Virus record (IMG/VR): IMGVR_UViG_3300030202_000014
Location: 1 to 57,421 of that record
Source of the DNA: a virus
Taxonomy: Duplodnaviria > Caudoviricetes
Reading direction: 5' to 3' (one strand)
Length of the DNA: 57,421 bases
The notes beneath the pieces were generated by a model. The model was not told the origin of the DNA. It ran no database searches and worked only from the letters and a program-made list of their open reading frames with translations. Shown here in pieces: positions 32,232 to 51,421 of the stretch; position 1 is the stretch's first letter; each line of letters starts with the position of its first letter. Both the position numbers and the translations under genes were made by a program.

Positions 32232-32243
32232 ATGATATTCTCC

Positions 32244-32717: not shown

Positions 32718-32727
32718 GATACTCTCC

Positions 32728-34626: not shown

Positions 34627-34629
34627 TGT

Positions 34630-34993: not shown

Positions 34994-35001
34994 GCTCTCT
35001 C

Positions 35002-35343: not shown

Positions 35344-35344
35344 G

Positions 35345-35797
35345 CTATTTCCTTTCTATTTTCTTCAGTGGGAAAACTATTAGGTCTGGATGTTTATCTT
35401 TTCCTTTTTCCTTTAACCACTCTAACGGTACAACTCTGTCTGCGTACATAAATTTATTGCGTTCACACCAGATGCTGTAGGTTGTCTTTGCCCCTTTGCT
35501 TAACTTACGTTTGGAGCTTTCAAATACAAATCGTATATCAAGCTTGGGGTGTTGCTTCTTAATGAGCTTATGTTTCCTACGGTCATCTGATGTGAAACGA
35601 CCCTTGGTTTCAATTATAATGCCGTTTGGCAGCACAAAGTCTGGAGTGTATGTGCGATACATCAAGTCTTCCCACTCTATCTTGAGAGCCTCATACTTGA
35701 TAGGCACATTGTGTTCTACAAGATAATCTTTTACCTTTATCTCTAGCCCACTTCTGTAGCCATACTTTAATGCTGCCTGAAACTGCTTTCGATTCAC
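35345..35797 (-). CDS. Endonuclease I-like Holliday junction resolvase (T7 gp3 family)
   Basis: YRSGLE, YTPDF, IIETKGRF, LDIRFVF. Confidence 0.9.
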   Translation of the reverse strand: MNRKQFQAALKYGYRSGLEIKVKDYLVEHNVPIKYEALKIEWEDLMYRTYTPDFVLPNGIIIETKGRFTSDDRRKHKLIKKQHPKLDIRFVFESSKRKLSKGAKTTYSIWCERNKFMYADRVVPLEWLKEKGKDKHPDLIVFPLKKIERK

Positions 35798-36027
35798 TAG
35801 AACTTCCAGTGATACGATGAAGTTAAGGGTATTCCAAATGACGTAGACGGATAGCCTAAGTCTTTTAGTTCTTGTTTAATAGCATCGTCTGCTTCCTTAC
35901 GTGCTTGTACTGCTGTACGTAGTCCTGCATACTTTGCTTCTCGCAGTGCTTTCTTTTTCTCTGCAAGGTCAGCTTCCATTGCACGAATTTCATCATGCAT
36001 TTCTTTCATTTCGTCTGTACTAATCAT
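35797..36027 (-). CDS. Small coiled-coil protein
   Basis: 76 aa ORF with AAGGAG RBS. Confidence 0.65.
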   Translation of the reverse strand: MISTDEMKEMHDEIRAMEADLAEKKKALREAKYAGLRTAVQARKEADDAIKQELKDLGYPSTSFGIPLTSSYHWKF

Positions 36028-36029
36028 TA

Positions 36030-36884
36030 TTACTCCTTTAGTTCGACATACGCCACGATCTTAGGATCACGTGCTTGTGATACCTTAGATGGTAGCTCTT
36101 GCATATTAGGCCAACATGAAAAACGATAGTCACAGAACCTGCAATTATCATTCAGTACCATGTTGCCACTGGGCTTACCTCTGTAAGTCTCAGGAACAGC
36201 TTCAAAGCAACGTTCAAACTTATTCTCGTTAACTTTTTCAACTGTCTCTTTTAATTTAGTAAGTTCTTTTCGCATGTCAATAGCAGCAGGTACATATTTA
36301 AAGTCACCATTGGCTTTATTTACTACCCACCATCCACCTGCACGTTTGTCAGATGCTTTTGCATAACCTGCAAGCTGACCTACGTATCCAAATGGATCAC
36401 TCTTTTTTAGTGCGGCATATGACTCGAACTTATTGCGGTAAGACCAATCAGAAGCAGACTTTATATCATCCACTGCACCACCCATTATAAGATCATAACT
36501 ACCAGAAACCCTAGTACCATTAGAATCTCCCACATCAAGAGTAACTTGATCAGTGTCATCAAAGTCCACTTTAGCTTCTTTAAGCAAGCCTTTAAAAATT
36601 GCTTCAACTATGTCTCCTATCATCATGTTCATTACAAACGTGGATGGTTTTGGTAATGCACTCTCAGGTTTATTCTTTTCAAACCAGAGTTGACAGGTAG
36701 GACGTCCAATGTTGGACATCCGTAACCTGAACTCCTTTCGAGATTTACCACTACCAAACTGACGTATGACTGCTTCTGCCACCTCTTCACCAATTCTCTT
36801 AGCAGTTTCTTCTGAGAAGGTAGTCTTCCCATCAATTGCATCAGACATAAACTGGTGAAGTTTCAGTTCAGCAGGATGGTTCAT
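36030..36884 (-). CDS. PD-(D/E)XK (Cas4/RecB-like) exonuclease
   Basis: RMSNIGRPTC, GSYD, DDIKS, QLAGY, CRFCDYRFSC. Confidence 0.8.
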   Translation of the reverse strand: MNHPAELKLHQFMSDAIDGKTTFSEETAKRIGEEVAEAVIRQFGSGKSRKEFRLRMSNIGRPTCQLWFEKNKPESALPKPSTFVMNMMIGDIVEAIFKGLLKEAKVDFDDTDQVTLDVGDSNGTRVSGSYDLIMGGAVDDIKSASDWSYRNKFESYAALKKSDPFGYVGQLAGYAKASDKRAGGWWVVNKANGDFKYVPAAIDMRKELTKLKETVEKVNENKFERCFEAVPETYRGKPSGNMVLNDNCRFCDYRFSCWPNMQELPSKVSQARDPKIVAYVELKE

Positions 36885-37768
36885 TATGCAAAGTCCTCTT
36901 CAGTAATGTCGATGAACTCTTCCACACCTTCCTTGTCTACGTCCTCATGCTTGTGGGCATTCTCATCCCAAGCATTCGAGATATACTCGTTGTAGTTTGT
37001 CACCCATGCTAGGAAGTTACCTAGTGTTTCCTGAGTGGCATCATCCAACTCCAACGTAGTCTGCAAGTCAAGTGCAGTCTCTGGCAAATAGAAGCTGCTA
37101 CCGTTTGGTAACGACTGCTCTGCTGTAGTAGCAGTAAACGTATGCTGTGGTGGTAGCCTACGCATCTTGCCAAGTTTGGTAAACAATGCACCAATAGACT
37201 TGAACGCATCACGGTTCTCCACTTCCCAGATGAATGGTGTAGAGGATAGATCAACAGCCTTACCTGCTGCATCTACAGGGTCAATCAATTCGACAGTGCC
37301 GAACACTACACGTACACGCTTGATCTGTTTGATCAAATCTTGCATGGACTCAGGCAGTGCCTTGAAGTCCTGTATGTACCCTGCAGGTTTACCACAGTTG
37401 AACCCACCGTCATTGTCCTTGAGGTCAATGTTCAAGTTGTCAGCCATGACAGTCTTGATGTAACGGTTTGGTGTACTGTCGTTCCCTTTCACGAAACGCT
37501 TGTACATAAACCTTTGTACGAATGGGCGAATGACCACCTTAGATGCATAGTATGTAGGTCCATCAGGTATCTCCAACCTGTATGTACCACCCTCAACGAC
37601 TTCAACCTTCTTGGTCTTGCCGTTTACTTCAGCCTCACCCATGATAGGCGCATGTGATATACGCAGTCGAGCAAGCGTGGATGCTTTCTCTGTCTGCTGA
37701 TTGTCTACCGACATACCCATGAGCTTTGCCATGTCTGAGAAGTTTGTATTTATTGCGACTTGATTCAT
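36884..37768 (-). CDS. Putative ssDNA-binding/annealing protein
   Basis: Lies between polymerase and exonuclease, has an acidic C-terminal tail and its own promoter. Confidence 0.55.
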   Translation of the reverse strand: MNQVAINTNFSDMAKLMGMSVDNQQTEKASTLARLRISHAPIMGEAEVNGKTKKVEVVEGGTYRLEIPDGPTYYASKVVIRPFVQRFMYKRFVKGNDSTPNRYIKTVMADNLNIDLKDNDGGFNCGKPAGYIQDFKALPESMQDLIKQIKRVRVVFGTVELIDPVDAAGKAVDLSSTPFIWEVENRDAFKSIGALFTKLGKMRRLPPQHTFTATTAEQSLPNGSSFYLPETALDLQTTLELDDATQETLGNFLAWVTNYNEYISNAWDENAHKHEDVDKEGVEEFIDITEEDFA

Positions 37769-37799
37769 ATATAGTCTCCTTTTCTAATTTACGAATTTA

Positions 37800-37830
37800 T
37801 AGTTATATCAGGCTACGTCTTTTGTGTCAA
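37800..37830 (-). promoter_or_regulatory. Sigma70-like promoter
   Basis: Minus strand TTGACA-N17-TATAACTA overlapping the end of the polymerase gene. Confidence 0.65.
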
Positions 37831-39859
37831 GCCAATTGTCTCCAATTTTTGCTTCTAATAATAATGGTACATTGAAATCAATATTCCACTTCTTATTCAC
37901 CAAAGATGTTAGCATTTCATTAGTTCTGTTTATTACCTTGAGCACCTTTTCTGTTTCATCTGGATGAACATCAATCACGATACTGTCATGCACTGTGTTT
38001 ACAATACAAGACCACATCTGATTTACACCCATTAGCTTGTCTATGTATATCAGAGATATAGGTACAATGTCAGCAGTGGCAAACGATTGGACAGGATAAT
38101 TTTTTATCTGTGTGAAATATGTCACACCACCAAAGCGTCTACGTTGTACATCAGGGAATGAGAACTCACGTCCAGACGGTGTACGTATCTTGCCAGTGTT
38201 CAATGCTTCCTTGGCGAGAGCTTCGTGCCACTTTCCTATGCCACTGTATTTCTTTGTGAACTGCTTGTAGTATGCAGCCTCTGCTTCTGTACGTCCAAAC
38301 CCACTAGCACCGTACAGAGGTGCAAAGGTATGTGACTTAGCATCCTGACGTGAGATAGGTTGCCCTGCATCAGAGATAACTTTAGCTGTATAACTATGTA
38401 CATCAAAGCCAGTAGTCACCTCATCAATGGCAGTCTTGTCTTGTGACAGGAATGCAGCTACACGAAACTCCAACTGTGCAAAATCAGCTTCCATGATCTG
38501 TCCACCTTCCCATCGTGACTTGAACACACGCTTCACTGGGAACGTACCACCACGTGGCATGTTCTGCATGTTCGGGTCTGCCCCTGACAGTCTGCCTGTA
38601 CCTGTGCGGTGTTGTAGTAATCGTACATGTAGCCTACCATCTAGTTTGGTGTGTGTGGATATACCTTCAACAAAGCTACTCAGGTAAGTCTCTACGGCAC
38701 TTAGTCTACGCACACGCTTGAGGAATGTCTCAGCTTCAGTCATGCCCTTACTACGTGCAATGCCTTCGAGGAACACGAGGTTGTCTTTGCTAGTAGAGAA
38801 CCCACTATGGCTTACCCACTTGGCTGTAGGTGCAGAGAACTTTAACCCTGCTACCTGATTAGTATCAGTAAAAGTGTACCCCACAGTATCACACGTAGGA
38901 CATCTGTTAGGTCTAGCATACTTTGTTCCATCTTTCTTCACCTTCCATACTTTTCCACTGCCATTACACGTATCACATTGCTTGGCCTTTTGTTTGTACA
39001 ACACATCACTGCTGTTACGTACTTGATACCGATAGTCTTGGTCATCCATACGTTCATTGAACAACTCTGACCAGAACTTTTTGTCTTTGGGCTTACGGCT
39101 GTACACAACCCATGACAACTGCTCTGTGCTTGCCAGATTGATTGGGCGATCACCCATCAGTTCACGCACCTGTTCTTCTAGCTCACGTATAAGTTCTCCA
39201 CGCTCTTGCTCAAACTCTTTATGCACATTCTCTAGTTCGTCAAGGTCAACTGCAAATCCACGTTGATATATCTTGGCTAGATGTACAGCCAGTTGGTTAG
39301 TCAGCTTGACAGTATTCTGCAATGGCATGTGCTCTTCATACATGCGTAGCTTTGTATCAATGTGGTTGTACAACTCTTGTGTGGCATGTAGGTCATCGGA
39401 TAGGTAGCTACATAAGTCAAACCAATTCATGTCACGTACAGACTTACCTGACTTGAGCCACTCTTTCATTGTGTCCTGCTTCTTTGTGTCTAGCTCATAC
39501 CGTTCTGCACATGCTTCAAGTGACAGTGGTTCTTTCTGCCCACGTTGTAAGATGTATTCACCTAGCATGGTATCAAAGATTTCACCCTCATAGGTAAAGC
39601 CCGACTCCCATAGCCACACTAGATCGTGTGCAGCATTGTGCATAATAAGAAGGGAGGCTTCATCCAGTTTCAGTTGGACGATAGTCCTCCCCTCTGTCGT
39701 GGGCGTTTGCTCTGCGTGATCGAATGTTACAAGGTCTTCGTTACCAAGATCATCTAGCATCCCCACCATGACTAATGTATTCATTGGTTCGAAAGGGTCA
39801 AGGTGTAGCTTGCCGTTTCGTTTTGTCACTGTGTTCTCTACGTCAAGGGTCAGTTTCAT
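37808..39859 (-). CDS. polA: Family A DNA polymerase with DnaJ-like zinc-finger insertion
   Basis: Exo I DVE; motif A DFAQLE; motif B KSHTFAPLYG; motif C VHDS; CDTCNGSG...CPTCDTVG insert. Confidence 0.95.
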   Translation of the reverse strand: MKLTLDVENTVTKRNGKLHLDPFEPMNTLVMVGMLDDLGNEDLVTFDHAEQTPTTEGRTIVQLKLDEASLLIMHNAAHDLVWLWESGFTYEGEIFDTMLGEYILQRGQKEPLSLEACAERYELDTKKQDTMKEWLKSGKSVRDMNWFDLCSYLSDDLHATQELYNHIDTKLRMYEEHMPLQNTVKLTNQLAVHLAKIYQRGFAVDLDELENVHKEFEQERGELIRELEEQVRELMGDRPINLASTEQLSWVVYSRKPKDKKFWSELFNERMDDQDYRYQVRNSSDVLYKQKAKQCDTCNGSGKVWKVKKDGTKYARPNRCPTCDTVGYTFTDTNQVAGLKFSAPTAKWVSHSGFSTSKDNLVFLEGIARSKGMTEAETFLKRVRRLSAVETYLSSFVEGISTHTKLDGRLHVRLLQHRTGTGRLSGADPNMQNMPRGGTFPVKRVFKSRWEGGQIMEADFAQLEFRVAAFLSQDKTAIDEVTTGFDVHSYTAKVISDAGQPISRQDAKSHTFAPLYGASGFGRTEAEAAYYKQFTKKYSGIGKWHEALAKEALNTGKIRTPSGREFSFPDVQRRRFGGVTYFTQIKNYPVQSFATADIVPISLIYIDKLMGVNQMWSCIVNTVHDSIVIDVHPDETEKVLKVINRTNEMLTSLVNKKWNIDFNVPLLLEAKIGDNWLDTKDVA

Positions 39860-39867
39860 TGTGTCTC

Positions 39868-40053
39868 CTAATAGTCGGCTGTTACGGTTGCGTGTGTTGC
39901 ATCTATTACTAACTCATTTGAGTAGTAATCGTCAAGATGTTTCTCAAATTCTTTTTGGTTAGCAAACTCAGCCATAGCTCGTTTGGCTTCTTCCAGAGTT
40001 AACTTGTGGCGGTTCATTGCTGCAAGCAACTCTACTTCTTCTATGAGTGTCAT
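39868..40053 (-). CDS. Hypothetical protein
   Basis: Short ORF in the operon; start uncertain. Confidence 0.5.
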   Translation of the reverse strand: MTLIEEVELLAAMNRHKLTLEEAKRAMAEFANQKEFEKHLDDYYSNELVIDATHATVTADY

Positions 40054-40054
40054 G

Positions 40055-40321
40055 CTAACCATTGTTCATTTCCTTTCGTTCCTTTGCTCGTTGTCTTTCA
40101 TCAAAACTAAATGGCCTGATGTCATTATAAGTACTCACCTTATCGACAGACCTGTTTGTATCGAAGTCAACTATTACTCCTGTATTCCATTTACAACGTT
40201 CTTCCTCTGCATCTTTTAAATTATCAAATAGCTTTGGTTTTGGGTAATTCACAAACCCATGTGTATTCTCTGGCACATACATGATGTCACCATCCACATC
40301 AATTACTACTGCTAGTCTCAT
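40055..40321 (-). CDS. Hypothetical protein
   Basis: AAGGAG RBS before MRLAVVID. Confidence 0.6.
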   Translation of the reverse strand: MRLAVVIDVDGDIMYVPENTHGFVNYPKPKLFDNLKDAEEERCKWNTGVIVDFDTNRSVDKVSTYNDIRPFSFDERQRAKERKEMNNG

Positions 40322-40518
40322 CCCTCTCTCCTTATTACACAACTAATATCAATTACTGGATCATTAAATCCTGCTACTGAAATAACTTCTACTGCAAGCG
40401 TACTTGCATTACTGGCGTCAGTAACATACTCAGTACAATCTTTTTTATATTCAAACGTTTTGTATGGTATAACAAATGGATCACCTGCATATAAAGTTAT
40501 AAGTATAACCCAGTTCAT
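40318..40518 (-). CDS. Small two-cysteine protein
   Basis: Hydrophobic N-terminus, FxxxxxC...C. Confidence 0.6.
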   Translation of the reverse strand: MNWVILITLYAGDPFVIPYKTFEYKKDCTEYVTDASNASTLAVEVISVAGFNDPVIDISCVIRREG

Positions 40519-41177
40519 AGGTTAGCCATCAGTGCTTGCCACGATACAGGAAAAGCATTTAACATTACGTTCTCTATTTCTACTGCAACTAACTGTGTCT
40601 CTAACTGTGTGTCATCTGCACACCGTAGGCTACACATCTTAGCAAAAGCATACAAGCTACCTGACCAGTACCACTCTGTCATCATAGACTGTGGCAATAC
40701 CATACGTGCTTGCTCTGGTGCTACTCCATGATGGAGTAAAAGTTTATAGTTTTCTAACGCTCTTTTATGTACACTTCCACTTAATATATTAGGTGGAGCA
40801 GGTGGTACTACACCTTCGCTGCCTTGCTTCTTATCTGCACTACGCCCACGCCAATGTTCTGGATCATAGAACTCAGGCTCACTGTCTACATACCTACGGC
40901 TAATCTCATTCCAAGGCATGTACTCATGCTTTACAAGTTGACGTGCAACAAACACTGGTGCTTTAACATGGAAGGTAGCAAAAGCATGGTTAAATGGTGA
41001 CTTGTGATTGTGTTCAGCAAGATACTTAATTAGCTTTACATCAGCAGGTTTTAGTTCCCACTTACCTTTGATCAAGTCAGTACACTCGTACTTAGACTTC
41101 TTACCGAATGATACACGTGCAGCGTTTACTACACTAATGTCATCTCCCATATGTGATATGTATGTTACCTCAATCAT
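40515..41177 (-). CDS. thyX: Flavin-dependent thymidylate synthase
   Basis: NAARVSF, HKSPF, RQLVKH, NEISRRY, EQARMVLP. Confidence 0.93.
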   Translation of the reverse strand: MIEVTYISHMGDDISVVNAARVSFGKKSKYECTDLIKGKWELKPADVKLIKYLAEHNHKSPFNHAFATFHVKAPVFVARQLVKHEYMPWNEISRRYVDSEPEFYDPEHWRGRSADKKQGSEGVVPPAPPNILSGSVHKRALENYKLLLHHGVAPEQARMVLPQSMMTEWYWSGSLYAFAKMCSLRCADDTQLETQLVAVEIENVMLNAFPVSWQALMANL

Positions 41178-42397
41178 GCTACGTACCTCGCAATCTTGTA
41201 CTCAAGATCAGTGTGTACGATACCATGCCAACCAGACAACTTGTTCTTTACAACGTTGATGTGGCGTTGGTTATCTTCTTCCTCTTGCCCTTCAACTGTA
41301 GGGTTCTTGGAAATCATAATCATCAGGTCAGCTTCTGCTGCCTTACCTGTACGTGACCCTTCCATCATGGCTTGGTTGAGTACCACCTTACCCTCTGCCT
41401 CTGCTGATAGCTGAGACATGTAGAAGATAGCACACTCATGCTGCTTGGCAATCTGTCTTGCATGCACAGCGTTAGCCTTGAGTGCTTCGTCAGGACGTGC
41501 AAAGCCACCCATCTTGGCGAACTTGTCACCCATGTCCAGTATCACAATGTCAGGCTTATATGACTTACACACGGACTCAACCCAGTTCATGTCACGACCT
41601 GTAGCATCCTTGAACATGACGTTCTTACGTATCTGATCGAACACTTCCATAGCTCTGTGCTTGTTCTTACTAATCTCGTACTTGTCCATGCCTGTAGCTG
41701 CTGTAATGTACCTGTGAGCCACCCTGTGATAGCCCTCTTCGTTACATAAAATGATACACTTAGCACCTTGCCATGCAAACCCTTGCGGAGAGGCAACAAG
41801 CGAAGCATGGAATGAGGTCTTACCAGTGTTCGGCCTCGCCCCTACCTCAATCAAATGTCCTGCATTGATGCCCTCTACCTTACGTGTCAGGGTAGGAATG
41901 TTGAACGTCCATTGTGACTCCAAATCTGTCATTGACAGGATGGTATCGAGGCTTATGTCTTCCCACTCTACCTGTAGGTTAGGCGTGAAGTCATCACCGT
42001 ATTGCTCCATCAAATTACGTAGTGGTTCAAGGCTAGACTTGCTGCCATTGACATAATCAAAGCCAAGGTTGGCAATGTCCTCACCCACCACTTGTTGAAA
42101 CAACTTGGATAATACTTCCTGTGCCACGTCACTACCCATTGGGCTTTCTTTCTTGATCTTGTGAAACAGGTGACTGTATGCTTGCTTCTGTGCTGTAGTC
42201 AGTGTCGGATTGTTTGCCATGAACAGTGCTTCTATCTCGTCAGGTGTAACTGTACGTGAGTACCTATCCATTGCAGTATCCACTGCTTGCTTGATCTTGC
42301 GTACATCTGAACTGAACAATCTGTCTGGGCATTTAGCACCACGATGATCGTCATAGAACTCTTTGTCCATCAAGCTTCGTACTAATGATAATTCCAT
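41174..42397 (-). CDS. DnaB-like (SF4) replicative helicase
   Basis: Walker A GARPNTGKT, ILD, SQL, KNK. Confidence 0.9.
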   Translation of the reverse strand: MELSLVRSLMDKEFYDDHRGAKCPDRLFSSDVRKIKQAVDTAMDRYSRTVTPDEIEALFMANNPTLTTAQKQAYSHLFHKIKKESPMGSDVAQEVLSKLFQQVVGEDIANLGFDYVNGSKSSLEPLRNLMEQYGDDFTPNLQVEWEDISLDTILSMTDLESQWTFNIPTLTRKVEGINAGHLIEVGARPNTGKTSFHASLVASPQGFAWQGAKCIILCNEEGYHRVAHRYITAATGMDKYEISKNKHRAMEVFDQIRKNVMFKDATGRDMNWVESVCKSYKPDIVILDMGDKFAKMGGFARPDEALKANAVHARQIAKQHECAIFYMSQLSAEAEGKVVLNQAMMEGSRTGKAAEADLMIMISKNPTVEGQEEEDNQRHINVVKNKLSGWHGIVHTDLEYKIARYVA

Positions 42398-43161
42398 TAT
42401 GTGTCTCCTAGTGTTGTTAGTTTATCTAAGTCGGTTTGGTTTCTGTATTTCAGGTCATCTTCAAGGCGTAGCACATTTACGTTTGGTACTAGCCCTCGTA
42501 ATTCTTTTGCAAACTGTAGTGTCTTGGGTAGTGCGTCAGGGTCAAGAGCTACAATTGCTGTTGAGAACTGTGACAAGTACTTCTTATGCCCATCGGATAA
42601 TGATGTACCCAACACTGCGACCCCGACAAATCCATCAGTACCTACGATGGCTGCACTCACACAGTCCTCAACAACTACAGCAGTTGTACCACGTCCACAG
42701 ACGTATGGCAAGCTGCTTTTTCCATATCTTTTCCACTTGGGTATTCGTTTACCTAGCGATCTACCAGTGGCATCTGTCATGGCAGTACCCTGCATTATAG
42801 GGAACACCACACGATGTTCTTTTACATCATACAATAGCCCCAATACCTTGGGGTCTAGCTTCCACGTATCACAGAACTCTGAGATTGCATTGTCATCTTT
42901 TACAATCCATTCAGGTTTGTCGAAAGTTATAGAGTGTGTCTCTTCTGCAACACTACCCAGTGACTTGCGTATGTCCTCTGCTGTGAGATGAACACGCTTG
43001 CCACCAGATACGTGACACCCTGCCTTGTAGCAATTCCAAATCATAGAACCCATGTTGTTCGTGATCGTGAAGGTCTTGCGCCCACCACACTCAGGACAGT
43101 CCATACGTTTAGTATCTCCATTTGTAAGTGTTATATCATTTATAATATTATATACACTCAT
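42397..43161 (-). CDS. DNA primase (zinc finger + TOPRIM)
   Basis: CPEC...CYKAGC; VVEDCVSA; LDPDA. Confidence 0.88.
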   Translation of the reverse strand: MSVYNIINDITLTNGDTKRMDCPECGGRKTFTITNNMGSMIWNCYKAGCHVSGGKRVHLTAEDIRKSLGSVAEETHSITFDKPEWIVKDDNAISEFCDTWKLDPKVLGLLYDVKEHRVVFPIMQGTAMTDATGRSLGKRIPKWKRYGKSSLPYVCGRGTTAVVVEDCVSAAIVGTDGFVGVAVLGTSLSDGHKKYLSQFSTAIVALDPDALPKTLQFAKELRGLVPNVNVLRLEDDLKYRNQTDLDKLTTLGDT

Positions 43162-44282
43162 AATGTATCACTTTCAATGTTACTCCTTACAGTCGATTGT
43201 ACACTAATGTCTCTACGTGTCAAGGCACTATTTGCACTTTCGTAAGTATGCTTGTGATATGGCTTCACAGAAGACACATGTGTATGTCCAGATACAGCCA
43301 TGATTTGTGGTAAAGGTACACCTTTGTCTATCATTTGTGTTATACCAGTTCTCCGTATGTCCATGAGCCGTAGCTCTTCAGGTAGCTTTGCTAGTCGCAT
43401 GATCTTCCGTCCAACCTTGGACAGTCTCTCCATTGCGTATGGTTTGTACACGCCCTTCACAGGCATAGGATGTGGCACTACCCAAGGCTGAAAACCAAAG
43501 TCTGCTTTCTGCTCTTTGAGCATGGCAGTCAAGTTATCTGTGATAGGAAGAAACACATCAGCCCTACGCTTACTCTGTTCTAATGTAAGCTGTTGCTTAT
43601 CCAAGTCAAGGTTCTCCCATCTTAGGTTACGCATGTCACCCAGACGCTGACACCACTCGTATGCCATGTGTATAATCAACCCGACATTCCTGTAGTCAAA
43701 GTCACTGTACGCCACGTCAAGAAACTTATTCACCTCACCATGTGACCACACCATTTTACGTTGCTTGGCAGTCTTACGCTTGATCTTACCAAACGGATTC
43801 TGCTCTGCATGTTCCATCTGTATGGCATAGTTGTACACTCTGCTTGCACAGGTAGCTGCATGGTTAGCAAAGCTAATGCCACGCTTGACCCACTCTTCAT
43901 ATGCAGCCTTGGCTATCTTGGACGTCACGTCTTTGTACTTGCGACACCCGATAGTCTGGTGTACGACTGTCAGAAAGTATCTGTAATCTACTTTAGTTGT
44001 GTCACGTAACATATTGAAATCATTGGATTGATAGTAAAAGTTGATAAGGTCAGTGACCCTGCTGCTTGGCTTCAAGCCCACAAGTTTTGCACGTTCCTCA
44101 CGCCAATCATCTATCTGTTTGTTTAACTCCTTTGCTAGTCTGCGTACCTCTTTGGTATCAGTACCCAGTTCTTCACGTTCCACCACGCCCTCATCTACAA
44201 GCATCTGTGGTGGATTAAAGCGATAAGAAGTGTCACCCGAAGATGACACTCTTAGTTGTACATAACGTGGTAGCATCTGCAT
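43158..44282 (-). CDS. Tyrosine recombinase/integrase
   Basis: Catalytic R (CQRLGD), K (QSKR), DIRRT, SGH and Tyr (VKPY). Confidence 0.88.
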   Translation of the reverse strand: MQMLPRYVQLRVSSSGDTSYRFNPPQMLVDEGVVEREELGTDTKEVRRLAKELNKQIDDWREERAKLVGLKPSSRVTDLINFYYQSNDFNMLRDTTKVDYRYFLTVVHQTIGCRKYKDVTSKIAKAAYEEWVKRGISFANHAATCASRVYNYAIQMEHAEQNPFGKIKRKTAKQRKMVWSHGEVNKFLDVAYSDFDYRNVGLIIHMAYEWCQRLGDMRNLRWENLDLDKQQLTLEQSKRRADVFLPITDNLTAMLKEQKADFGFQPWVVPHPMPVKGVYKPYAMERLSKVGRKIMRLAKLPEELRLMDIRRTGITQMIDKGVPLPQIMAVSGHTHVSSVKPYHKHTYESANSALTRRDISVQSTVRSNIESDTL

Positions 44283-45130
44283 TAAGCAGCTTCCAATTCT
44301 AGGAACTTCTTATCAGATACCCACTTGCTGACTTCCTGTTCACGACTGAACATGCTGATAGCTTGTGTGTCGTTACCAGTGTTACGTAGGCTGAACCCAT
44401 TACGCTCATCAGCATACGATGCATAGTTGGTAAAGGCAGAGTACAACGCCCACTTGTTGTGGCCTCGTTGAGATGCCTCATGGCAATACAATTCGTACAT
44501 CTTTTCAGACTTACGCTTAGATGCAATCATGTCTTCTAGCAATGACTGTACGTTTACGTATTTGAGGTCAGTCTCAGCCCACACCTGCATCTTTGCAGTC
44601 TCTTCGTAGAAGTCACGTCTTGCACGATTTAACTCGTAGATGAAACCATCCAGTGTAAAGTTAGATGTGTTCTTCTTACGAACCTTGTCGTATTCACCAC
44701 GTATCATGCCGTTAGTGCAGAAGAAATCAATCTGTCCAAAGTACACTTGGTTGCTGCATGAACCATCAACACCATGTAATGATATGATACGATTGCCAAG
44801 CGTAGTTGTGTGCTTGTCTGTAGCAATCTCTACCTGCATGTCAGGTAATGTGATGTCTAGCATAGACCATGCACCACTTCGTGCAGTGCGCCAGTTGTAT
44901 TTGGCATTGGTCATCTCAGCAGGTGAAAGGTTTTCTGTCAGTGTGTCCATGACACCACGATAGAAGTCACCATGAGATGCACAGGTAAAACCTCTACCCA
45001 CGATACCAATGTACTCACCAGTGTTACCATTAATGACGTATTTCTTGTCATCTACTTTAGTTGGTTCAAATTCCACATCAAAGTCAAGCTTTGTTGGAAT
45101 GTCGAATGTGTTGTTAATGTCGAATGGCAT
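44282..45130 (-). CDS. DUF932/DUF945-like protein
   Basis: HGVDGS...FCTNGM...NKWALYSAFTNY. Confidence 0.75.
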   Translation of the reverse strand: MPFDINNTFDIPTKLDFDVEFEPTKVDDKKYVINGNTGEYIGIVGRGFTCASHGDFYRGVMDTLTENLSPAEMTNAKYNWRTARSGAWSMLDITLPDMQVEIATDKHTTTLGNRIISLHGVDGSCSNQVYFGQIDFFCTNGMIRGEYDKVRKKNTSNFTLDGFIYELNRARRDFYEETAKMQVWAETDLKYVNVQSLLEDMIASKRKSEKMYELYCHEASQRGHNKWALYSAFTNYASYADERNGFSLRNTGNDTQAISMFSREQEVSKWVSDKKFLELEAA

Positions 45131-45213
45131 ATATAATACTCCTTTTCAGTTGGTTATGTGGCAACTTTGCCATAGTTATGTAGTCTTGTCTACCCCTATA
45201 CTAGTAACGGTAA

Positions 45214-45606
45214 CTATTTATAGAAGATGTGTGACCCATGAGCCACAGTTTTATTGAAGTGCTTGCGCCACCAAGGACTCACATACGTAGCATGGTAGTG
45301 CGTAGCACCATCTGTATTGTCTTTGTGATAGCCATACAGTGTGTTGTAGGCTACCACTTGTGCAACTATCCAAGACATATTGTCTTTGGGTTTGTCTGAC
45401 TTACCATCACAGTACCACGAGAACTGGCATCTATGCTTGCCCTTGTGGTATCCCTGCTTGACCACCTTACATGCATCGTTAGGGAATGAGTCATCAGCTA
45501 CACGATTGAGCACTACGTGGGCAACTGCATATTGCCCATTCATAGGCTCACTACGTGCTTCGTAGTACACATTGAGTGCAAGGCACGTGAGAAACATTTC
45601 AATCAT
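45214..45606 (-). CDS. Cell wall hydrolase (SleB/Hydrolase_2)
   Basis: CLALNVYYEARSE, VVLNRV, CQFSW, GATHYH, HIFY. Confidence 0.9.
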   Translation of the reverse strand: MIEMFLTCLALNVYYEARSEPMNGQYAVAHVVLNRVADDSFPNDACKVVKQGYHKGKHRCQFSWYCDGKSDKPKDNMSWIVAQVVAYNTLYGYHKDNTDGATHYHATYVSPWWRKHFNKTVAHGSHIFYK

Positions 45607-45773
45607 CTGGTATCAACCTCTAGGCAAGCCAGTGTCTCTGAGCTATGGTTCACTAGAACCACTGCTTCTTTCAAAGCCAACTGGCATTCTTCGGCTTTAC
45701 CGAATGTTCCCAATTGATAGTAATCAACTCCCTGATTTGTCACGAGTTGCATCCACACTAGTATCCACATCAT
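45603..45773 (-). CDS. Small two-cysteine protein (56 aa)
   Basis: Manual translation MMWILVWMQLVTNQGVDYYQLGTFGKAEECQLALKEAVVLVNHSSETLACLEVDTR; AAGGAG RBS. Confidence 0.6.
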   Translation of the reverse strand: MMWILVWMQLVTNQGVDYYQLGTFGKAEECQLALKEAVVLVNHSSETLACLEVDTR

Positions 45774-46012
45774 CTGTACTCTCCTTAAACTTATCTCTGG
45801 CTACGCCAGTTTCCTTAGACAGTGCATCAGCCATAGCCTTTGCAAGTTCTTTGTTTGGTGCATCAATTATAATTTCCATTAGTCAGTCTCCTTTTCTTCT
45901 GTTTGTATAATACAGGCTTCACATAAGTAGCCACACTCGTTATCCCATTCATGGTATTCGAGTTCCTCTATGTCACCACAGTTTTCACATGCGCTGACCA
46001 TTGTTATTTGCA

Positions 46013-46357
46013 TCACTGTATCTCCTTTTGAGCTTCGTGATGATAGTCTAAAGCCATACGTATCATGGTTTTACCTTCGTCATACTCCCCACTGCACAGC
46101 TTGTCATAGCCCCATCTAAAATAGGACAATGCTTTCTTGTTTATATCATCAGTATCTTTTGTCGTTGCAAACCATTCACTGATTGCCTCTTCGCCATACG
46201 GATCAGCACCTGCACCCACCTTATTGGCATTGAGAAAGCGTAACAAGCTAGGCTTGTCTACTGGCACATCGACAGTCGTGTAGCCTTTGCCACACATCTT
46301 ACGTGCATCGGCCTGTGTTCCTGCCCATACACCACTGCTGTTCCTGTATAGTTTCAT
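46013..46357 (-). CDS. Hypothetical early protein
   Basis: MKLYRNSSGVWAGTQADA; ATGA coupling with the upstream gene. Confidence 0.65.
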   Translation of the reverse strand: MKLYRNSSGVWAGTQADARKMCGKGYTTVDVPVDKPSLLRFLNANKVGAGADPYGEEAISEWFATTKDTDDINKKALSYFRWGYDKLCSGEYDEGKTMIRMALDYHHEAQKEIQ

Positions 46358-46860
46358 GCTACTTCCTCTTGTACAAACCATTCTGGCACTGGACGATTAG
46401 TCCACACCATCTTGAACCTGCGTTGCTTGGTCATGTAGAACTTGCGATAGCTTTCCATAGGCCACGCTTTACCTGACTTCAAGTCAGTGTGTTCACTGAA
46501 GCACTCAGGGTGTGGTGTAAGCAAACCATCAGGCACATACACTGCACCCTGCACAAGTGCATCCCACAATCGCCATGAGGCATGGGTCTTGCCATATCGG
46601 TGGGTGTACTCTTTGCACATCCAACGAAACATTTCAAGTGAGTACTCAAAGTTGGCACGAGTTTGCCCTGCCCATATGGTGCATGGGTGCTTCTGGTGTA
46701 CAGCACGATACAACCCTGCTTCCTCTGCATACTCTGGTGCATGTAGTCGGACAGAAGTGCATAGCATCTGTGCCTCTTCAAGTGGCATCTTGACCACGTG
46801 CTTGTCACACAAGTCACGAGCAATCAAGTCAGGACTGTAGTTGATAATAAATCTGTTCAT
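46354..46860 (-). CDS. Pyrimidine-dimer DNA glycosylase-like protein (DenV/endonuclease V superfamily)
   Basis: DKHVVKMPLEEAQML, HPCTIW, EYTHRYGKTH, YRKFY. Confidence 0.75.
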   Translation of the reverse strand: MNRFIINYSPDLIARDLCDKHVVKMPLEEAQMLCTSVRLHAPEYAEEAGLYRAVHQKHPCTIWAGQTRANFEYSLEMFRWMCKEYTHRYGKTHASWRLWDALVQGAVYVPDGLLTPHPECFSEHTDLKSGKAWPMESYRKFYMTKQRRFKMVWTNRPVPEWFVQEEVA

Positions 46861-46913
46861 GTTATTTCCTTTTCAAATTACCTGCCCAATGTGAGCAATC
46901 GTCACATGGATCA

Positions 46914-47279
46914 TCAGGCGGCATTGGTTTCTCTGGTGTTGGTGGTTTCCTCGGCATCTATTTTATACACAAGCACACGTATCTCAAAGGTCATGTCATC
47001 TGTGACAACAACCTCTGGACGTAAGCCAAGTGTGTCTCCCTCGCTTGCGAACTTACGTAGGTTCTTAACGGACAGTAACCTGTCACCTCGTGGCCTACGG
47101 TATAGACGTACCTCTGTCGGGGTATCATCCTCATACAACGCATCTATCGTCACCTTATCGCCATTGGCAATCTGGTTGTATGAATAATCTATTTCATCAG
47201 CCAGTGCTTGCACTGACTTGTTGGCGTCCATGATGGACTTGGTAAGCATACGCTTAGTCAATTTAATTCTAGCTTCCAT
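46914..47279 (-). CDS. Early protein resembling a restriction-enzyme accessory DNA-binding domain
   Basis: LTKRMLTKSIMDANKSV...RLYRRPRGDRLLSVKNLRKFASEGDTL; AAGGAG RBS; family recalled from memory, not searched. Confidence 0.4.
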   Translation of the reverse strand: MEARIKLTKRMLTKSIMDANKSVQALADEIDYSYNQIANGDKVTIDALYEDDTPTEVRLYRRPRGDRLLSVKNLRKFASEGDTLGLRPEVVVTDDMTFEIRVLVYKIDAEETTNTRETNAA

Positions 47280-47289
47280 GTCTTTCTCC

Positions 47290-47520
47290 TTACTGTACTG
47301 CATACGGTGCTTCATATATGTATGGGTATTGTTTGTATTCATCCATTTCATACTCACCGCATTCTATAAATTCAATGTTCACTGCTTCGGGGTGTGACTC
47401 ACGAGCAAGCATCATGGCAAAGTGAGTTGCACTATGCCAATCAAAGATTGATGGGTAGGTATCGTCTAGTTGTATTAGACTTTCCATACCATCAACATCT
47501 ACCTTTACGTCATAGCCCAT
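47290..47520 (-). CDS. Hypothetical acidic early protein
   Basis: ORF in the early operon. Confidence 0.6.
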   Translation of the reverse strand: MGYDVKVDVDGMESLIQLDDTYPSIFDWHSATHFAMMLARESHPEAVNIEFIECGEYEMDEYKQYPYIYEAPYAVQ

Positions 47521-47522
47521 GA

Positions 47523-47918
47523 CTAGCATGGCTCTACCCCCTCTGCACGTATGTATGGCCTATACACTGTCTCATCTGGACAGTTGAACGTAGGCTCAAG
47601 AGACAGGTATGCACGTTTGGCTTTACGCACTGGTGACTTGTCAATCCACTTCACGAAACTGTTATACTTGTATGGGTTGTACCCAACATTGTCCAACATT
47701 GGACAGTCCTTCTCACTGAAGTATGTAGCTTCGCCACGTACAAAAGCATGGACATTTTTCTTGCCCTCACGCAAGACACGTTGCCGCCCACCTTCACGCA
47801 CCACGAACTCTGGATTGCGAATGTGTACCTTGTCAGTGTGCAGTATCACCCTGCCCGACCTAGCTGATCGGACAGAGAATAGGTGCTTATGTAAATTGAA
47901 ATAGACTTCAACTCTCAT
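47523..47918 (-). CDS. Conserved phage early protein
   Basis: VYFNLHK...REGKKNVHAFVRG...YNPYK; GGAG RBS before 47918. Confidence 0.7.
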   Translation of the reverse strand: MRVEVYFNLHKHLFSVRSARSGRVILHTDKVHIRNPEFVVREGGRQRVLREGKKNVHAFVRGEATYFSEKDCPMLDNVGYNPYKYNSFVKWIDKSPVRKAKRAYLSLEPTFNCPDETVYRPYIRAEGVEPC

Positions 47919-48042
47919 CTGTTTTCTCCGTTTGAATTTGCTTTGCATAGTCTTTGCATATGCGTTTGTTGTGGCACATGATGACAACCTTACCGTCATC
48001 ATCATACACCACGTACTTACGTTTCCACAACAAGATACGCAT

Positions 48043-48273
48043 CTACCCTGCGAAGTGCCAGAACTTACGCTCTGTAACTTTGTTACGGTTGTGCTCAACA
48101 TACAAGCTGAACTTGCCCATGTGATGTGCAGTCATGCAATCACTACGGTTGAACAAAGACAAGCCACGAGACTTGACACTACGCTTACGTAGCAATCCCT
48201 TTTGTCCAAGAAAGTTGAAACGGAACCCTGATGTTCCATCATTAAGTGGTTTAGTTGCGAATAATACAAACAT
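48043..48273 (-). CDS. Hypothetical early protein
   Basis: AAGGAG RBS. Confidence 0.65.
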   Translation of the reverse strand: MFVLFATKPLNDGTSGFRFNFLGQKGLLRKRSVKSRGLSLFNRSDCMTAHHMGKFSLYVEHNRNKVTERKFWHFAG

Positions 48274-48311
48274 GTTTTTCTCCTTATGCTTGTGGTTGGT
48301 TTAAGGTTAAA

Positions 48312-48455
48312 CTATCTGGCAACTTTACGTTGCAATTGCTTTTGCTTACGTGCAATCTTACGTTCACGTTTCCAGTTGTCATTACGTTTAGACTGTCCAA
48401 CATTGGACGTTTTAGTTTTAGAAAACTTAATAAAGTTTTGCATCTCGTATCGCAT
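48312..48455 (-). CDS. Small basic early protein (47 aa)
   Basis: Manual translation MRYEMQNFIKFSKTKTSNVGQSKRNDNWKRERKIARKQKQLQRKVAR; AAGGA RBS. Confidence 0.55.
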   Translation of the reverse strand: MRYEMQNFIKFSKTKTSNVGQSKRNDNWKRERKIARKQKQLQRKVAR

Positions 48456-48520
48456 TTTGCTTTTCCTTCTTTGTAAGCTTACGCTTGTTACCTTTTTTGG
48501 GTGGCACTACTTGTGGAGAC

Positions 48521-48799
48521 TTACGCTCCTGTAGCATTGCCCTCGCTACTGGGTTGATGTATGTCGGCTTTGTCAATTTCATCTCGCACCTCTATCAATT
48601 TGTCAATCAGACTATTTAGTGAACTGCCATAGTGTTTTATGTACATAGTTTCCCACGTTTCACCCCTGTCTTTGTCAGGTATGATGGCAACCTCACGCTC
48701 ATCAGGCATCGGGTCTCTGTCTCTGTGATGTGAGATAGACACCTCTCTGCCTTTGTGAAATACGTATACGTTGTTCATGCTTACGTTGTATCTGTTCAT
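48521..48799 (-). CDS. Hypothetical early protein
   Basis: GAGGT RBS before MNRYNV. Confidence 0.6.
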   Translation of the reverse strand: MNRYNVSMNNVYVFHKGREVSISHHRDRDPMPDEREVAIIPDKDRGETWETMYIKHYGSSLNSLIDKLIEVRDEIDKADIHQPSSEGNATGA

Positions 48800-48803
48800 A
48801 GCG

Positions 48804-49388
48804 TTACCTCGCAATGTTGTGTTGTCTGCGCCAAGCTACCCATGTGATAGCTTGCATTTGAAAACCTTTGATGCCAACAGCTTTAGCTGCTTCAATATAA
48901 GCATTGGCAATGATACCATACTCTTTGACACCTACGTTGTTGTTCTTGAGAACCCTACGTAGTCCATCATGTATGTTCTTGGCGTGACCGTCTACAGTCA
49001 CTACGTCTAGTCCAACTATGTTGGCAAAGAAAGCTGTAGTCTTACGTCCATTGAGTTTAGCCATCAATGCTTTCCTACGTACCATACGTTGCTCAAGCAT
49101 ATCCCATGCCTTACGTTTGTTGGCAGGATAGGCAGAGACAGTTACCTCATCTATAGTGCAACCTTTGACAAAGGCTTCTACCAGTATGTGTGCAGCCTTG
49201 ACATTGACAGACCAACCAAGGTTGGGTGACAGTGCAGCAATGACACCAACAACAGTGTTTACACTGATACCAAATTCTTTGGCAATCTTGTTAGCATCAC
49301 GCTTGGCAAGCTTGTACCACTTGATGCCATGCGTCACTTCGTCAGGTGTGGCATTGTGGTATGTATTGAGAATGTTTTGTACAGTCAT
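48804..49388 (-). CDS. Conserved phage protein (possible helical glycosylase-like fold)
   Basis: GIKWY, VIAALSP, KTTAFF, VTVDGHA, QAITWVAWR. Confidence 0.6.
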   Translation of the reverse strand: MTVQNILNTYHNATPDEVTHGIKWYKLAKRDANKIAKEFGISVNTVVGVIAALSPNLGWSVNVKAAHILVEAFVKGCTIDEVTVSAYPANKRKAWDMLEQRMVRRKALMAKLNGRKTTAFFANIVGLDVVTVDGHAKNIHDGLRRVLKNNNVGVKEYGIIANAYIEAAKAVGIKGFQMQAITWVAWRRQHNIAR

Positions 49389-49624
49389 TATTCATCTCCC
49401 TTCGGGAATGCAGCATTCCATTCTTCTGGTGTAATACCAGAGATCAGGAACTCTCTTGCGCTATCACTCAGTTGTGGGAACGCATCTTGCACCAACGTGC
49501 CACTGGTAAGCCAGTAGTCAAGCTGCCCTGAACGCAATGGTAGCACCATGCAACTTTCCTTGCCAGTAAGCATGGATACCTTGTGTACCATTGTGAATCC
49601 TTCGGATACATGTTCATATCTCAT
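49388..49624 (-). CDS. Conserved phage early protein
   Basis: LVQDAFPQLSDSAREFLISGITPEEW; GGAG RBS before 49624. Confidence 0.7.
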   Translation of the reverse strand: MRYEHVSEGFTMVHKVSMLTGKESCMVLPLRSGQLDYWLTSGTLVQDAFPQLSDSAREFLISGITPEEWNAAFPKGDE

Positions 49625-49685
49625 TTCGGTTACTCCGTAAAAGTGTCCAACATTGGACGGTTTCAATTTTGTAATGTGTATACAT

Positions 49686-49725
49686 GTTATATAACACTTT
49701 CACAATAAATCAAGTGTTATATAAC
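49686..49725 (-). promoter_or_regulatory. Early promoter inside a perfect 14-bp inverted repeat
   Basis: GTTATATAACACTT-N12-AAGTGTTATATAAC; minus strand TTGATT-N16-TATAAC. Confidence 0.6.
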
Positions 49726-49735
49726 TGTAACACTA

Positions 49736-49897
49736 TTAATGTTCCACCTCACATACGACAGTGGAATGTTGATCCAATGTCTCATTCCATTGAATGAGCA
49801 ATGAATTGCAATCCTCACGTGTGAGGTTGTGATCAATCACAAATGTACTATCTAAACCAGTTATGTTAATAACTGACAGTATCAAAGCAAATGTCAT
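49736..49897 (-). CDS. Small two-cysteine protein (53 aa)
   Basis: Manual translation MTFALILSVINITGLDSTFVIDHNLTREDCNSLLIQWNETLDQHSTVVCEVEH; AAGGA RBS. Confidence 0.55.
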   Translation of the reverse strand: MTFALILSVINITGLDSTFVIDHNLTREDCNSLLIQWNETLDQHSTVVCEVEH

Positions 49898-50067
49898 TAT
49901 ATGTCCTTTACCCAGAATGTTAAGATTGCCAGTGTACCAAATGGTACAAGTGTAAACGGCAAGATGATAGGATCAAAGTTGTGAACAACTACAGCGTACA
50001 CAAAGAATGCTATAAGCATTGTCATGAATGTCCACAACAATGCGAATAAGATACGAAACAAAAACAT
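49897..50067 (-). CDS. Small two-TM membrane protein (56 aa)
   Basis: GGAGGT RBS; two hydrophobic helices. Confidence 0.6.
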   Translation of the reverse strand: MFLFRILFALLWTFMTMLIAFFVYAVVVHNFDPIILPFTLVPFGTLAILTFWVKDI

Positions 50068-50093
50068 GGTATTACCTCCAATGTGAAGTCAGC

Positions 50094-50699
50094 TTACACT
50101 GACTTCTTTTGTGTTGCAAGATGTGACTGTAAGTCAGCAATAATGTCTTCGACATTTAAGTTGTGTTGCTGACAATGGTGCAGAATGGTATCTACCATTT
50201 TGGTACGTGACACCATGACGTTGACGTTACGTTGGACAGTAGCACCAGATTTCTTAGCCTTCGGTTCTTTCCAACCGCTATCTGATACTACTGTATCATT
50301 CTGTCCAACATTGGACGGTTCATCTGCTTTAGCAGCATCACGCATAGCCTTCTGCAAAGCAGTGAGGGATGTAAAACCCTTTTTGCTTTTAGCAATGAAG
50401 TCACGACACTCTACTTCGTTTTCAACGAACCACAACGCTTCTGATCGTCTTCTACGATCAATCACATGAACACCATGTGTTGTGAGAGTTTGTCGGGATA
50501 TTTGACCACTATCAAGTGATGATGAAGCTTTCAATTGCTGTAGCAATTTGCCAAGCCGTGTATCAAAGCCAGAGGCTTTTGTAGAAGCTGTCAGACTGTT
50601 AGTCTGTTTCCAGATACGACCAAGGGCTTTGCCCTCTTTGATCATTGCATCAATAGTTGTTCCAACTACTTTGGTTTTTGCTTTAGCTGATTTAGCCAT
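50094..50699 (-). CDS. First early gene, basic protein of unknown function
   Basis: 201 aa, Lys/Arg-rich, AAGGA RBS, first ORF of the leftward arm. Confidence 0.75.
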   Translation of the reverse strand: MAKSAKAKTKVVGTTIDAMIKEGKALGRIWKQTNSLTASTKASGFDTRLGKLLQQLKASSSLDSGQISRQTLTTHGVHVIDRRRRSEALWFVENEVECRDFIAKSKKGFTSLTALQKAMRDAAKADEPSNVGQNDTVVSDSGWKEPKAKKSGATVQRNVNVMVSRTKMVDTILHHCQQHNLNVEDIIADLQSHLATQKKSV

Positions 50700-50710
50700 G
50701 TTACTATCCT

Positions 50711-50815
50711 TTACTATCTTCTGTTACATTAAAGAGAGTTTACTTATATCTCTCACCCTAAAGTGAGATATAATAAACTATCTATGTAACTATAGAAGAT
50801 AAGTAAGTATGTCAA
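50711..50815 (-). promoter_or_regulatory. Long imperfect inverted repeat with adjoining leftward promoter
   Basis: ~45-bp arms around loop CCTAAA (50757-50762); minus-strand TTGACA at 50810-50815. Confidence 0.55.
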
Positions 50816-51391
50816 GCCCTTCTTCATGTGATCCTCTGCGCCTGTCGTTTCATGCGCCACTGCAGCAATCTAAGATTGCGAAGTCCGTGTGTCAAACTCA
50901 CGTGTGTACACGAGGATTGCTAACGTCCAACCTTGGACAGTTGACAATGGACACCCTACCCTATGGGGTAGTATTAGTTTTATGCATCGGCTCTGCAACA
51001 CGTCTTTGTTTCAGTATTTTTGCTATTCATACAGTGTAAACACTGGCAACTGATTGCATAACAGTTGTTTATAGCTTGTAAGTCACTGTAAATGCTTGCA
51101 TTCTGTTTGTGTTGGTGGATTGTCACGCATATGTTGCCTTCACCTACGTGTGTATGTGTGTATATCTGCATGTATGTGCGTGTCAAGCGTGGGTGTGCGT
51201 GGGCCACACGGGGGTGGGGCGTTAGTATGTACACAGAAATACACAGATCAGGAAAAATGAAGTGTTAACCACATTACATATATAGTGGTTTACAGTTTCT
51301 TGTGATCACAAAACTAGGATAACACTTACCTGTGATCACATAATATATATTACACTTTGTTACAATATGTGTGCTACATTACGATTAGGGG

Positions 51392-51421
51392 TTGACATGG
51401 GTCATAGAATGTGTAAAACTA
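51392..51421 (+). promoter_or_regulatory. Rightward sigma70-like promoter
   Basis: TTGACA-N16-TAAAACTA; same pattern again at 51595-51624. Confidence 0.6.

Follow-up and report, generated by a model that had tools for sequence, protein, structure and literature searches.

A palindrome array in the early arm of an HMO-2011-type roseophage and its covariation with the first early protein

The palindrome array and its genomic setting

The window analyzed here is the complete virus record IMGVR_UViG_3300030202_000014 (57,421 bp). Its early/replication arm, made up of leftward genes, contains seven exact copies of the palindrome GTCCAA-NN-TTGGAC, and the first gene of this arm encodes a protein that we propose as their regulator. 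The palindromes are genuine, conserved elements restricted to the early arm, and the type of site covaries with the first early protein. The features on which the analysis draws are the following.

31664..51234, minus strand: early/replication arm, leftward genes, holding all seven sites
50925..50938: site 1, sense-strand spacer GG, intergenic, 239 nucleotides (nt) upstream of the first early gene
50867..50895, minus strand: sigma-70-like match TTGACA-N17-TAGATT (10/12), between site 1 and the first early gene
50094..50699, minus strand: first early gene, 201 amino acids (aa), proposed site-binding regulator, homologue of HMO-2011 gp74
50325..50366, minus strand: codons of predicted helix 112-125, with T113, M119 and R120; proposed recognition helix
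50303..50316: site 2, within the disordered acidic linker of the first early gene, frame S-N-V-G
49645..49658: site 3, intergenic, 8 nt upstream of GGAG, then the ATG (49624) of a 78-aa gene
48395..48408: site 4, within a conserved 47-aa basic open reading frame (ORF; 48312-48455), frame S-N-V-G
47691..47704: site 5, within an L5-gp82-like gene (47523-47918), frame C-P-M-L-D
43409..43422: site 6, within the tyrosine integrase gene (43158-44282), frame S-K-V-G
36704..36717: site 7, within a Cas4-like PD-(D/E)XK exonuclease gene, frame S-N-I-G

A pattern scan of the whole window recovered the copies at 36704, 43409, 47691, 48395, 49645, 50303 and 50925, the same positions named in the original prediction, which had been made from this DNA alone. 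On the plus strand their spacers read TG, CC, CA, CA, CA, CA and CC in ascending order of position, and the flanks of all seven fit a Y...R pattern, with a pyrimidine before the site and a purine after it. Shuffled sequence did not give similar counts: none of 100 dinucleotide-preserving shuffles of the window contained any match to the motif. The site family of the window is all-or-none, because no further site was found at one mismatch and a single one (49156) at two mismatches, where 1.9 were expected. No other palindrome of the form 6+N+6 exceeded three copies in the window. The predicted confinement to the early arm was likewise borne out. Positions 1-36703 and 50939-57421 hold no exact site, the structural arm and the rightward genes from 51592 are site-free, and the same confinement is seen in the whole records of relatives.

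Five copies do lie inside ORFs as originally described. The claim that they are read in different frames fared less well, as four of the five share an S-N/K-V/I-G frame and only the copy at 47691 is read as C-P-M-L-D; the argument from reading frame for selection on the DNA was therefore overstated. Site 3 had been placed between a promoter and a ribosome-binding site (RBS). The GGAG and the ATG at 49624 bear out the second half of this description, but the promoter, TTGATT-N16-TATAAC, was picked out by eye and is not listed by the consensus scan, although the site does lie downstream of a hairpin-wrapped promoter-like sequence. Overall, the consensus promoter scan of the window gave 31 matches, which is not above shuffles (24.8 ± 4.8). 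Site 1 lies 29 nt upstream of the -35-like TTGACA of the 50895-50867 match; this distance is 28-29 nt in the window clade and in the relative L048 and 40 or ~76 nt in other clades, and we base no claim on it. The 14-bp dyad itself is neither a promoter nor a terminator by consensus scan. No sense-strand T-run follows it in that scan, and two of the seven sites are terminator-like on the antisense strand only.

The early arm of the window shares 76-80% DNA identity with the Roseobacter phages CRP-345 and CRP-1. HMO-2011-type phages, described as a dominant and widely distributed marine viral group, are marked by a family A DNA polymerase with a partial DnaJ CXXCXGXG domain between its exonuclease and polymerase domains (PMC9038755). 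The gene at 37808-39859 matches DNA_pol_A (E 5e-52) and DNA_pol_A_exo1, and residues 290-331 match DnaJ_CXXCXGXG (E 2.4e-4, below the Pfam cut-off). Its sequence places the window among the HMO-2011-type roseophages, with CRP-345 and CRP-1 as close relatives. Besides many small ORFs, its early arm encodes a cell-wall hydrolase, a DUF932 protein, the tyrosine integrase, a primase, a helicase, ThyX, the DNA polymerase, the Cas4-like exonuclease, endonuclease I, ribonucleotide reductase and MazG. No ORF matched a transcription-factor family in Pfam or PHROGs, and the window contains no Rfam family and no tRNA gene.

Several other repeated or conserved elements were observed near the sites. Long hairpins wrap promoter-like sequences at 49676-49733, just upstream of site 3, and at 50711-50806, just upstream of the first early gene (both minus strand); when folded as single-stranded DNA they score z -3.3 and z -5.2, respectively, against shuffles. 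The former holds the palindrome GTTATATAAC twice, 30 bp apart (49686 and 49716). The idea of N4-like hairpin promoters was dropped because the large ORFs showed no virion or phage RNA polymerase by Pfam. Just downstream of TTGACA-N17-TAGATT, a block of ~36 nt (50830-50865, minus strand) is kept in L083, L034, L087, L091 and L110-L116 amid variable surroundings, and may be a conserved 5' leader. On the sense strand of 47681-47704, CAATGTTGGA is followed by CAATGTTGGG, a near-repeat of the inner 10 bases of site 5 that may have arisen by a small tandem duplication. A pair of overlapping basic ORFs, 51 and 47 aa long (48312-48582, minus strand), is kept in most relatives, the 51-aa ORF partly so even in site-free AT-rich relatives. 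The 10-bp palindrome TGTGATCACA occurs twice, 30 bp apart (51301-51310 and 51331-51340), in the AT-rich region that separates the divergent early and late gene blocks, and in the relative L083 one copy directly adjoins the first GTCCAA site. A second palindrome, CAGTGT-NN-ACACTG, has three copies in the window (16810, 49253 and 51032), one of them within the structural arm.

Site types in relatives and their covariation with the first early protein

We searched 80 IMG/VR loci around helicase homologues and took a census of palindromes on the long loci, where the window motif GTCCAA-NN-TTGGAC is designated type A and GTCCGA-NN-TCGGAC type B. CRP-345 carries six exact type-A copies and CRP-1 five, each with one additional 1-mismatch copy and at positions matching the window; the reversed-pattern control gave no copies in either phage. 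The 80 loci hold 53 exact type-A copies. In the long-locus census type A is carried by L034, L048, L049, L083 and L087, and type B, in all or nearly all copies, by L091, L092 and L090. Hybrid A/B arms were absent among the 81 sites within one mismatch of either type. Two AT-rich full-length loci that lack the first early protein (L074 and L079) have no repeated palindrome. The whole records of four further relatives (43-56 kb) contain five to eight sites each, within 3-8 kb. HMO-2011 itself has five copies of GTCCG-ACAG-CGGAC, one of them reversed in orientation: one is located 289 nt upstream of gp74, one 23 nt past the gp74 stop, and three before later early genes.

The sites of relatives lie mostly at early-gene boundaries, often overlapping the upstream stop codon and ahead of the next RBS, and in each genome one site precedes the promoter-like sequences of the first early gene. 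Within coding sequence, 48 of 61 relatives keep the integrase peptide spanning site 6, and 22 encode it with the codons that produce the site. Five relatives with a synonymous identity to the window of 0.61-0.69 across the gene retain all four third positions. The view that the sites are DNA elements under selection is thus supported both by their conservation in CRP-345 and CRP-1 and by the switching of all copies together to variant palindromes in relatives, where these occupy corresponding places.

Two sets of observations concern sites outside this pattern. Three relatives with helicases 74-75% identical (L060, L062 and L065) carry 7-10 copies of TGTCAA-NNN-TTGACA, placed just ahead of RBSs. 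The first early gene of these loci is laid out in much the same way (helical N-terminal part, acidic repeat linker, C-terminal part); an hhalign comparison of its product with the family gave a probability of 0.5% and showed no relation. One additional type-A site with an unusual CT spacer was seen at position 4073 of L100 (record G001, 14635), within an oppositely transcribed gene of the late direction, 1.9 kb upstream of the first early gene.

Clustering at 90% places the first early protein in a family of over 2,600 metagenomic proteins (126 clusters at 50%). HMO-2011 gp74, a protein of 205 aa encoded by the first gene in the early direction, matches the family profile with an E-value of 1.2e-15, and its helix region is strongly unlike those of types A and B. 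Among the 80 helicase loci the profile matches eight, and all eight hold at least five type-A or type-B sites. BFVD contains one clear relative (S4S2E1, 205 aa, E 5e-5), and a feature search of the Atlas gave only inconsistent rows with scores of at most 0.90. The AlphaFold2 model is all-helical with a mean predicted local distance difference test (pLDDT) score of 70, rising to about 85-90 in the N-domain. The predicted layout comprises a helical N-domain (15-125), a disordered acidic linker (127-162) and two C-terminal helices (165-200). In the model, a helix-turn-helix-like arrangement is formed by helix 95-104, a turn that contains glycine (KKGFTS) and helix 112-125; the protein also has an invariant arginine run, R83-R85. 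The top row of an exhaustive structural aligner was the DNA-binding domain of KorB on operator DNA (1r71_A; Z 5.0, root-mean-square deviation 4.0 over 88 residues), a weak match, and Spo0J (1vz0_A) scored Z 3.9.

The relation between protein and site type was analyzed in 24 distinct contigs, 18 of type A and 6 of type B, with two further locus sets built on type-B proteins to enlarge the sample. Duplicates (L095, L099, L100 and L108), fragments without the helix (L090, L107 and L106), a truncated locus with one site of each type (L112) and an N-terminally truncated one (L105) were excluded beforehand. Only 3 of 247 alignment columns segregated perfectly with site type, and all three fall in predicted helix 112-125. 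From type A to type B, in window numbering, T113 becomes S, M119 becomes I or F, and R120 becomes A or N. A tree built without the helix required five changes of type, at least three of them on well-supported branches, and on this tree type B was no more clustered than shuffled labels. When labels were shuffled inside an 18-row clade, three perfect columns arose in 1 of 2000 trials. Individual pairs illustrate the pattern: L092 (type B) encodes a protein 85% identical to that of type-A L097 but only 64-67% identical to other type-B proteins, and L091 (type B) encodes one that is 86-87% identical to those of type-A L110 and L111.

Because the linker-borne site is visible in the protein as a codon signature, the association could also be tested on proteins alone. 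Among 246 family proteins, 89 had no match to the helix pattern and 12 no linker signature. Every protein with T113 carried the type-A linker signature (101/101), and 38 of 43 with S113 carried the type-B signature. On a rapidly built tree of 145 distinct proteins, from which helix and linker were left out, there were 14 signature changes and seven independent pairs on supported branches. Residue 113 changed in the same direction in ~6.5 of the 7 pairs and never in the opposite one (median p 0.03), and residue 120 behaved much like it. Four binders had been proposed at the outset. The first named, the product of 50094-50699, gains support from the covariation of site type with three residues in a single helix. 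No support was obtained for the integrase (43158-44282), for the product of 46914-47279, which is absent from most site-bearing relatives, or for that of 56687-57112, which was not examined in relatives.

Proposed operators and alternative explanations

We consider the palindromes to be, probably, operators of the phage's own first early protein, the HMO-2011 gp74 family, through which early transcription would be controlled in a stoperator-like manner. The initial suggestion, an array read by a sequence-specific protein that probably binds as a dimer, with silencing, parS-like loading or protection as its possible uses, is strengthened in its core by the conservation, the concerted switching and the covariation described above, and the protein itself stays a putative binder. 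On the proposed mechanism, the first early protein would accumulate after infection and occupy the palindromes, presumably as a dimer on duplex DNA with one subunit per GTCCAA half-site, whose inner bases may be read through helix 112-125. The site upstream of its own promoter region would serve as an operator and the sites at gene boundaries, mostly just before RBSs, as roadblocks; the remainder sit in coding stretches that would tolerate them. From these positions the protein, once abundant, could throttle the early arm, along which host RNA polymerase would be slowed or blocked. The outcome would be a Cro-like shut-off, an immunity-like silencing, or both, as in actinophage operator/stoperator arrays. 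Repeated, coordinated changes of specificity between nearly identical phages would be expected of an immunity or exclusion system (compare the account in PMC6550527).

A bolder proposal, which we regard as doubtful, is that the first early protein represents a new kind of DNA-binding regulator whose specificity is toggled by one to three helix residues, with the A, B and HMO-2011 variants forming heteroimmunity classes. If the proposal is true, HMO-2011-type phages, which are mostly 'lytic-looking', would run a repressor-based silencing or exclusion circuit. Protein and palindromes, on the main reading, are the first candidate regulator of this group and its putative sites. The main HMO-2011-type genome papers (PMC9038755 and PMC6918029), supplements aside, make no mention of promoters, repressors or inverted repeats by term search, and literature searches, supplements aside, found no prior description of the palindrome array in these phages. 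The data suggest a small, testable recognition code, in which residue 113 (T/S), with residues 119 and 120, corresponds to A or G at position 5 of the half-site. Metagenomic relatives could be sorted into specificity classes by sequence alone, and the cultured phages CRP-345, CRP-1 and HMO-2011 are available for testing.

A number of results weigh against operators read by the first early protein. The protein has no match in Pfam, including its helix-turn-helix families, or in PHROGs; its profile found nothing among PDB sequences at E-values up to 10, Foldseek returned nothing from the PDB at E ≤ 0.001, and the KorB and Spo0J scores lie within the chance range for helical models. The relatives with TGTCAA-NNN-TTGACA arrays have no detectable homologue of it. 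Type switching is incomplete in two loci, with five type-A sites and one type-B site in L087 and four type-B sites and one type-A site in L091. In the larger protein set, 5 of 43 proteins with S113 carry the type-A linker signature, and M119 does not discriminate. Conservation at synonymous positions, which the original prediction had proposed as a check, is firm at the integrase site (4/4 third positions) but less stable at exonuclease site 7, which has decayed to a 1-mismatch form in some relatives and keeps 2/3 third positions in several. None of 70 pattern matches in 185,579 species genomes was a prophage copy of the protein, leaving a role in lysogenic immunity without direct support.

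Three further points count against an operator on duplex DNA, and they are also those that favor a direction-dependent role or an RNA-level element, in which hairpins in early mRNA 5' of RBSs would be bound by the first early protein and serve as a translational operator, an mRNA-stability element or an N/boxB-like antitermination signal. Across 73 site groups, 41 have an RBS-like motif and a start within 60 nt, and in 32 of these 41 the RBS begins 8-12 nt past the site. The sense-strand spacers of the same groups are strand-biased (TG 38 and CA 7, along with CG 21 and GG 5), and modest RNA hairpins of -6.4 to -13.4 kcal/mol are possible at the sites. The invariant arginine run R83-R85 and the retention of a G-U pair on the sense strand in the two commonest 1-mismatch variants point in the same direction. 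Nevertheless, we judge an RNA element to be unlikely. The stems are invariant and the would-be loop is variable (CG, TG, GG or CA), which reverses the usual pattern of hairpin recognition by RNA-binding proteins. In every genome a site precedes the promoter-like sequences of the first gene, and one HMO-2011 site is inverted, as expected of a duplex target. The spacers are mostly pyrimidine-purine steps, which at the dyad fit a bent duplex; the covarying residues fall within a helix-turn-helix-like element; and no Rfam family matched. The excess of TG could have arisen where the C of a central CG changed to T on the coding strand, and the fixed spacing to the RBS could reflect shared descent of site-plus-leader cassettes. 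Taken together, duplex DNA appears considerably more probable than RNA as the target.

It is improbable that the palindromes are recombination joints or borders of mobile cassettes resembling the PeSL cassettes known from T4-type phages (PMC2839356), kept by the shuffling of early genes and not by protein reading. The early arm is indeed mosaic, with unrelated small ORFs between the conserved sites, and site-plus-leader cassettes are repeated in L048. Such joints would nonetheless leave unexplained both the concerted switch from A to B and the covariation with three residues, and the lack of a sense-strand T-run, with two of seven sites terminator-like on the antisense strand alone, also speaks against them.

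ParB/KorB-like loading is quite improbable. The protein would then partition, condense or silence the phage genome through parS/OB-like palindromes, for example in a plasmid-like or carrier state. Multiple dispersed palindromes, the KorB and Spo0J structural rows, and a ParB/Sulfiredoxin phage protein at BFVD rank 9 (E 0.21) are compatible with this idea. Opposed to it, the structural scores are at chance level as noted, Pfam detected no ParB N-terminal domain, nor did the ORFs scanned yield a ParA-type partner. The phage has an integrase, and its relative CRP-3 integrates at a tRNA gene (PMC6918029). The sites, moreover, are linked to gene starts and do not form a centromere-like cluster.

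We give very little credence to sites of a host regulator or of a restriction-modification or methylation enzyme, despite the central CG/TG of the palindrome and a C5 cytosine methyltransferase beside one site in L092, as the type of site follows the phage protein and not the host, A and B occur in near-identical phages, and the window has no methyltransferase match. The scan of host chromosomes proposed with the original prediction did not reveal enrichment in the host family: among 301 genomes of the roseobacter family, 130 had at least one match to the degenerate pattern, and 300 held 0-6 copies, like the reversed-pattern control. Higher counts in host genomes were scattered, not clustered. 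Scanning genome contigs for GTCCAACGTTGGAC gave at least 122 scattered single matches across all phyla, which is uninformative on hosts. In one roseobacter-family genome, G047, GTCCGAGCTCGGAC has 165 dispersed copies, spaced by ~20-30 kb, whereas the reversed control has 2; this looks like an unrelated, genome-specific dispersed repeat with the same outer arms and a different inner sequence. The methyltransferase gene of L092, a type-B locus, lies at 5157-6275, immediately following a site. Methylation or deamination might be concentrated at the central CG/TG of the palindromes.

Comparison with known systems

The PeSL cassettes of T4-type phages resemble the early arm of the window in that short regulatory modules are repeated between small, fast-changing early genes (PMC2839356), and hairpin-wrapped promoter-like modules are present here too (49676-49733 and 50711-50806). 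As described in that paper, a PeSL is a module of a strong sigma-70-like promoter and a stem-loop terminator, whereas the dyad of the window is neither by consensus scan and covaries with a protein.

The closest parallels to the proposed operators are offered by the Cluster A mycobacteriophages, represented by L5 gp71 and the TipsytheTRex repressor. According to the published accounts, these phages have many copies of one short conserved site, located near an early promoter and in short intergenic spaces, and their protein and sites co-diverge into specificity classes among relatives (PMC9283540, PMC6550527). In those accounts the sites are read by a phage-encoded protein, as we propose here, and the system shares with ours a dependence on host RNA polymerase. 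The L5 site, in contrast, is described as an asymmetric 13-mer that is read by a monomer and depends on orientation, whereas the site in the window is a palindrome in which only the 2-nt spacer is strand-biased. L5 is reported to have more than 20 sites genome-wide, compared with 5-8 here in the early arm only, and the first early protein has no relation in sequence, and no clear one in fold, to gp71 with its helix-turn-helix and Stoperator domain. Finally, the putative regulator gene here opens the early operon, and the phage is a marine alphaproteobacterial podovirus.

KorB of plasmid RK2 is a global repressor that acts at variable distances from promoters, using a helical domain to read about a dozen dispersed palindromic OB operators. 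It provides the best, though weak, structural row for the first early protein (1r71_A). Unlike KorB/OB, the system described here has no detected ParB-type N-terminal domain or ParA partner and belongs to a phage early operon and not to a plasmid backbone. The phiC31 repressor binds conserved inverted repeats (CIRs) in intergenic regions of early genes, but length, protein and phage group all differ from ours.

Lambda N, the product of the first early gene, is an arginine-rich protein that reads the boxB hairpins of nut sites, with a specificity that covaries among related phages. An arginine run, dyads with invariant stems and a specificity covarying among relatives are found in the present system as well. 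It departs from N/boxB in having 5-8 sites instead of one per operon, no conserved loop, one site per genome upstream of early promoter-like sequences, and a protein that is modeled as a folded, helical chain of 200 aa. Considering that its site is symmetric and its protein is unrelated in sequence and has no clear fold match, the system formed by the first early protein and the palindromes lies outside the Cluster A, KorB/OB and phiC31 CIR systems.

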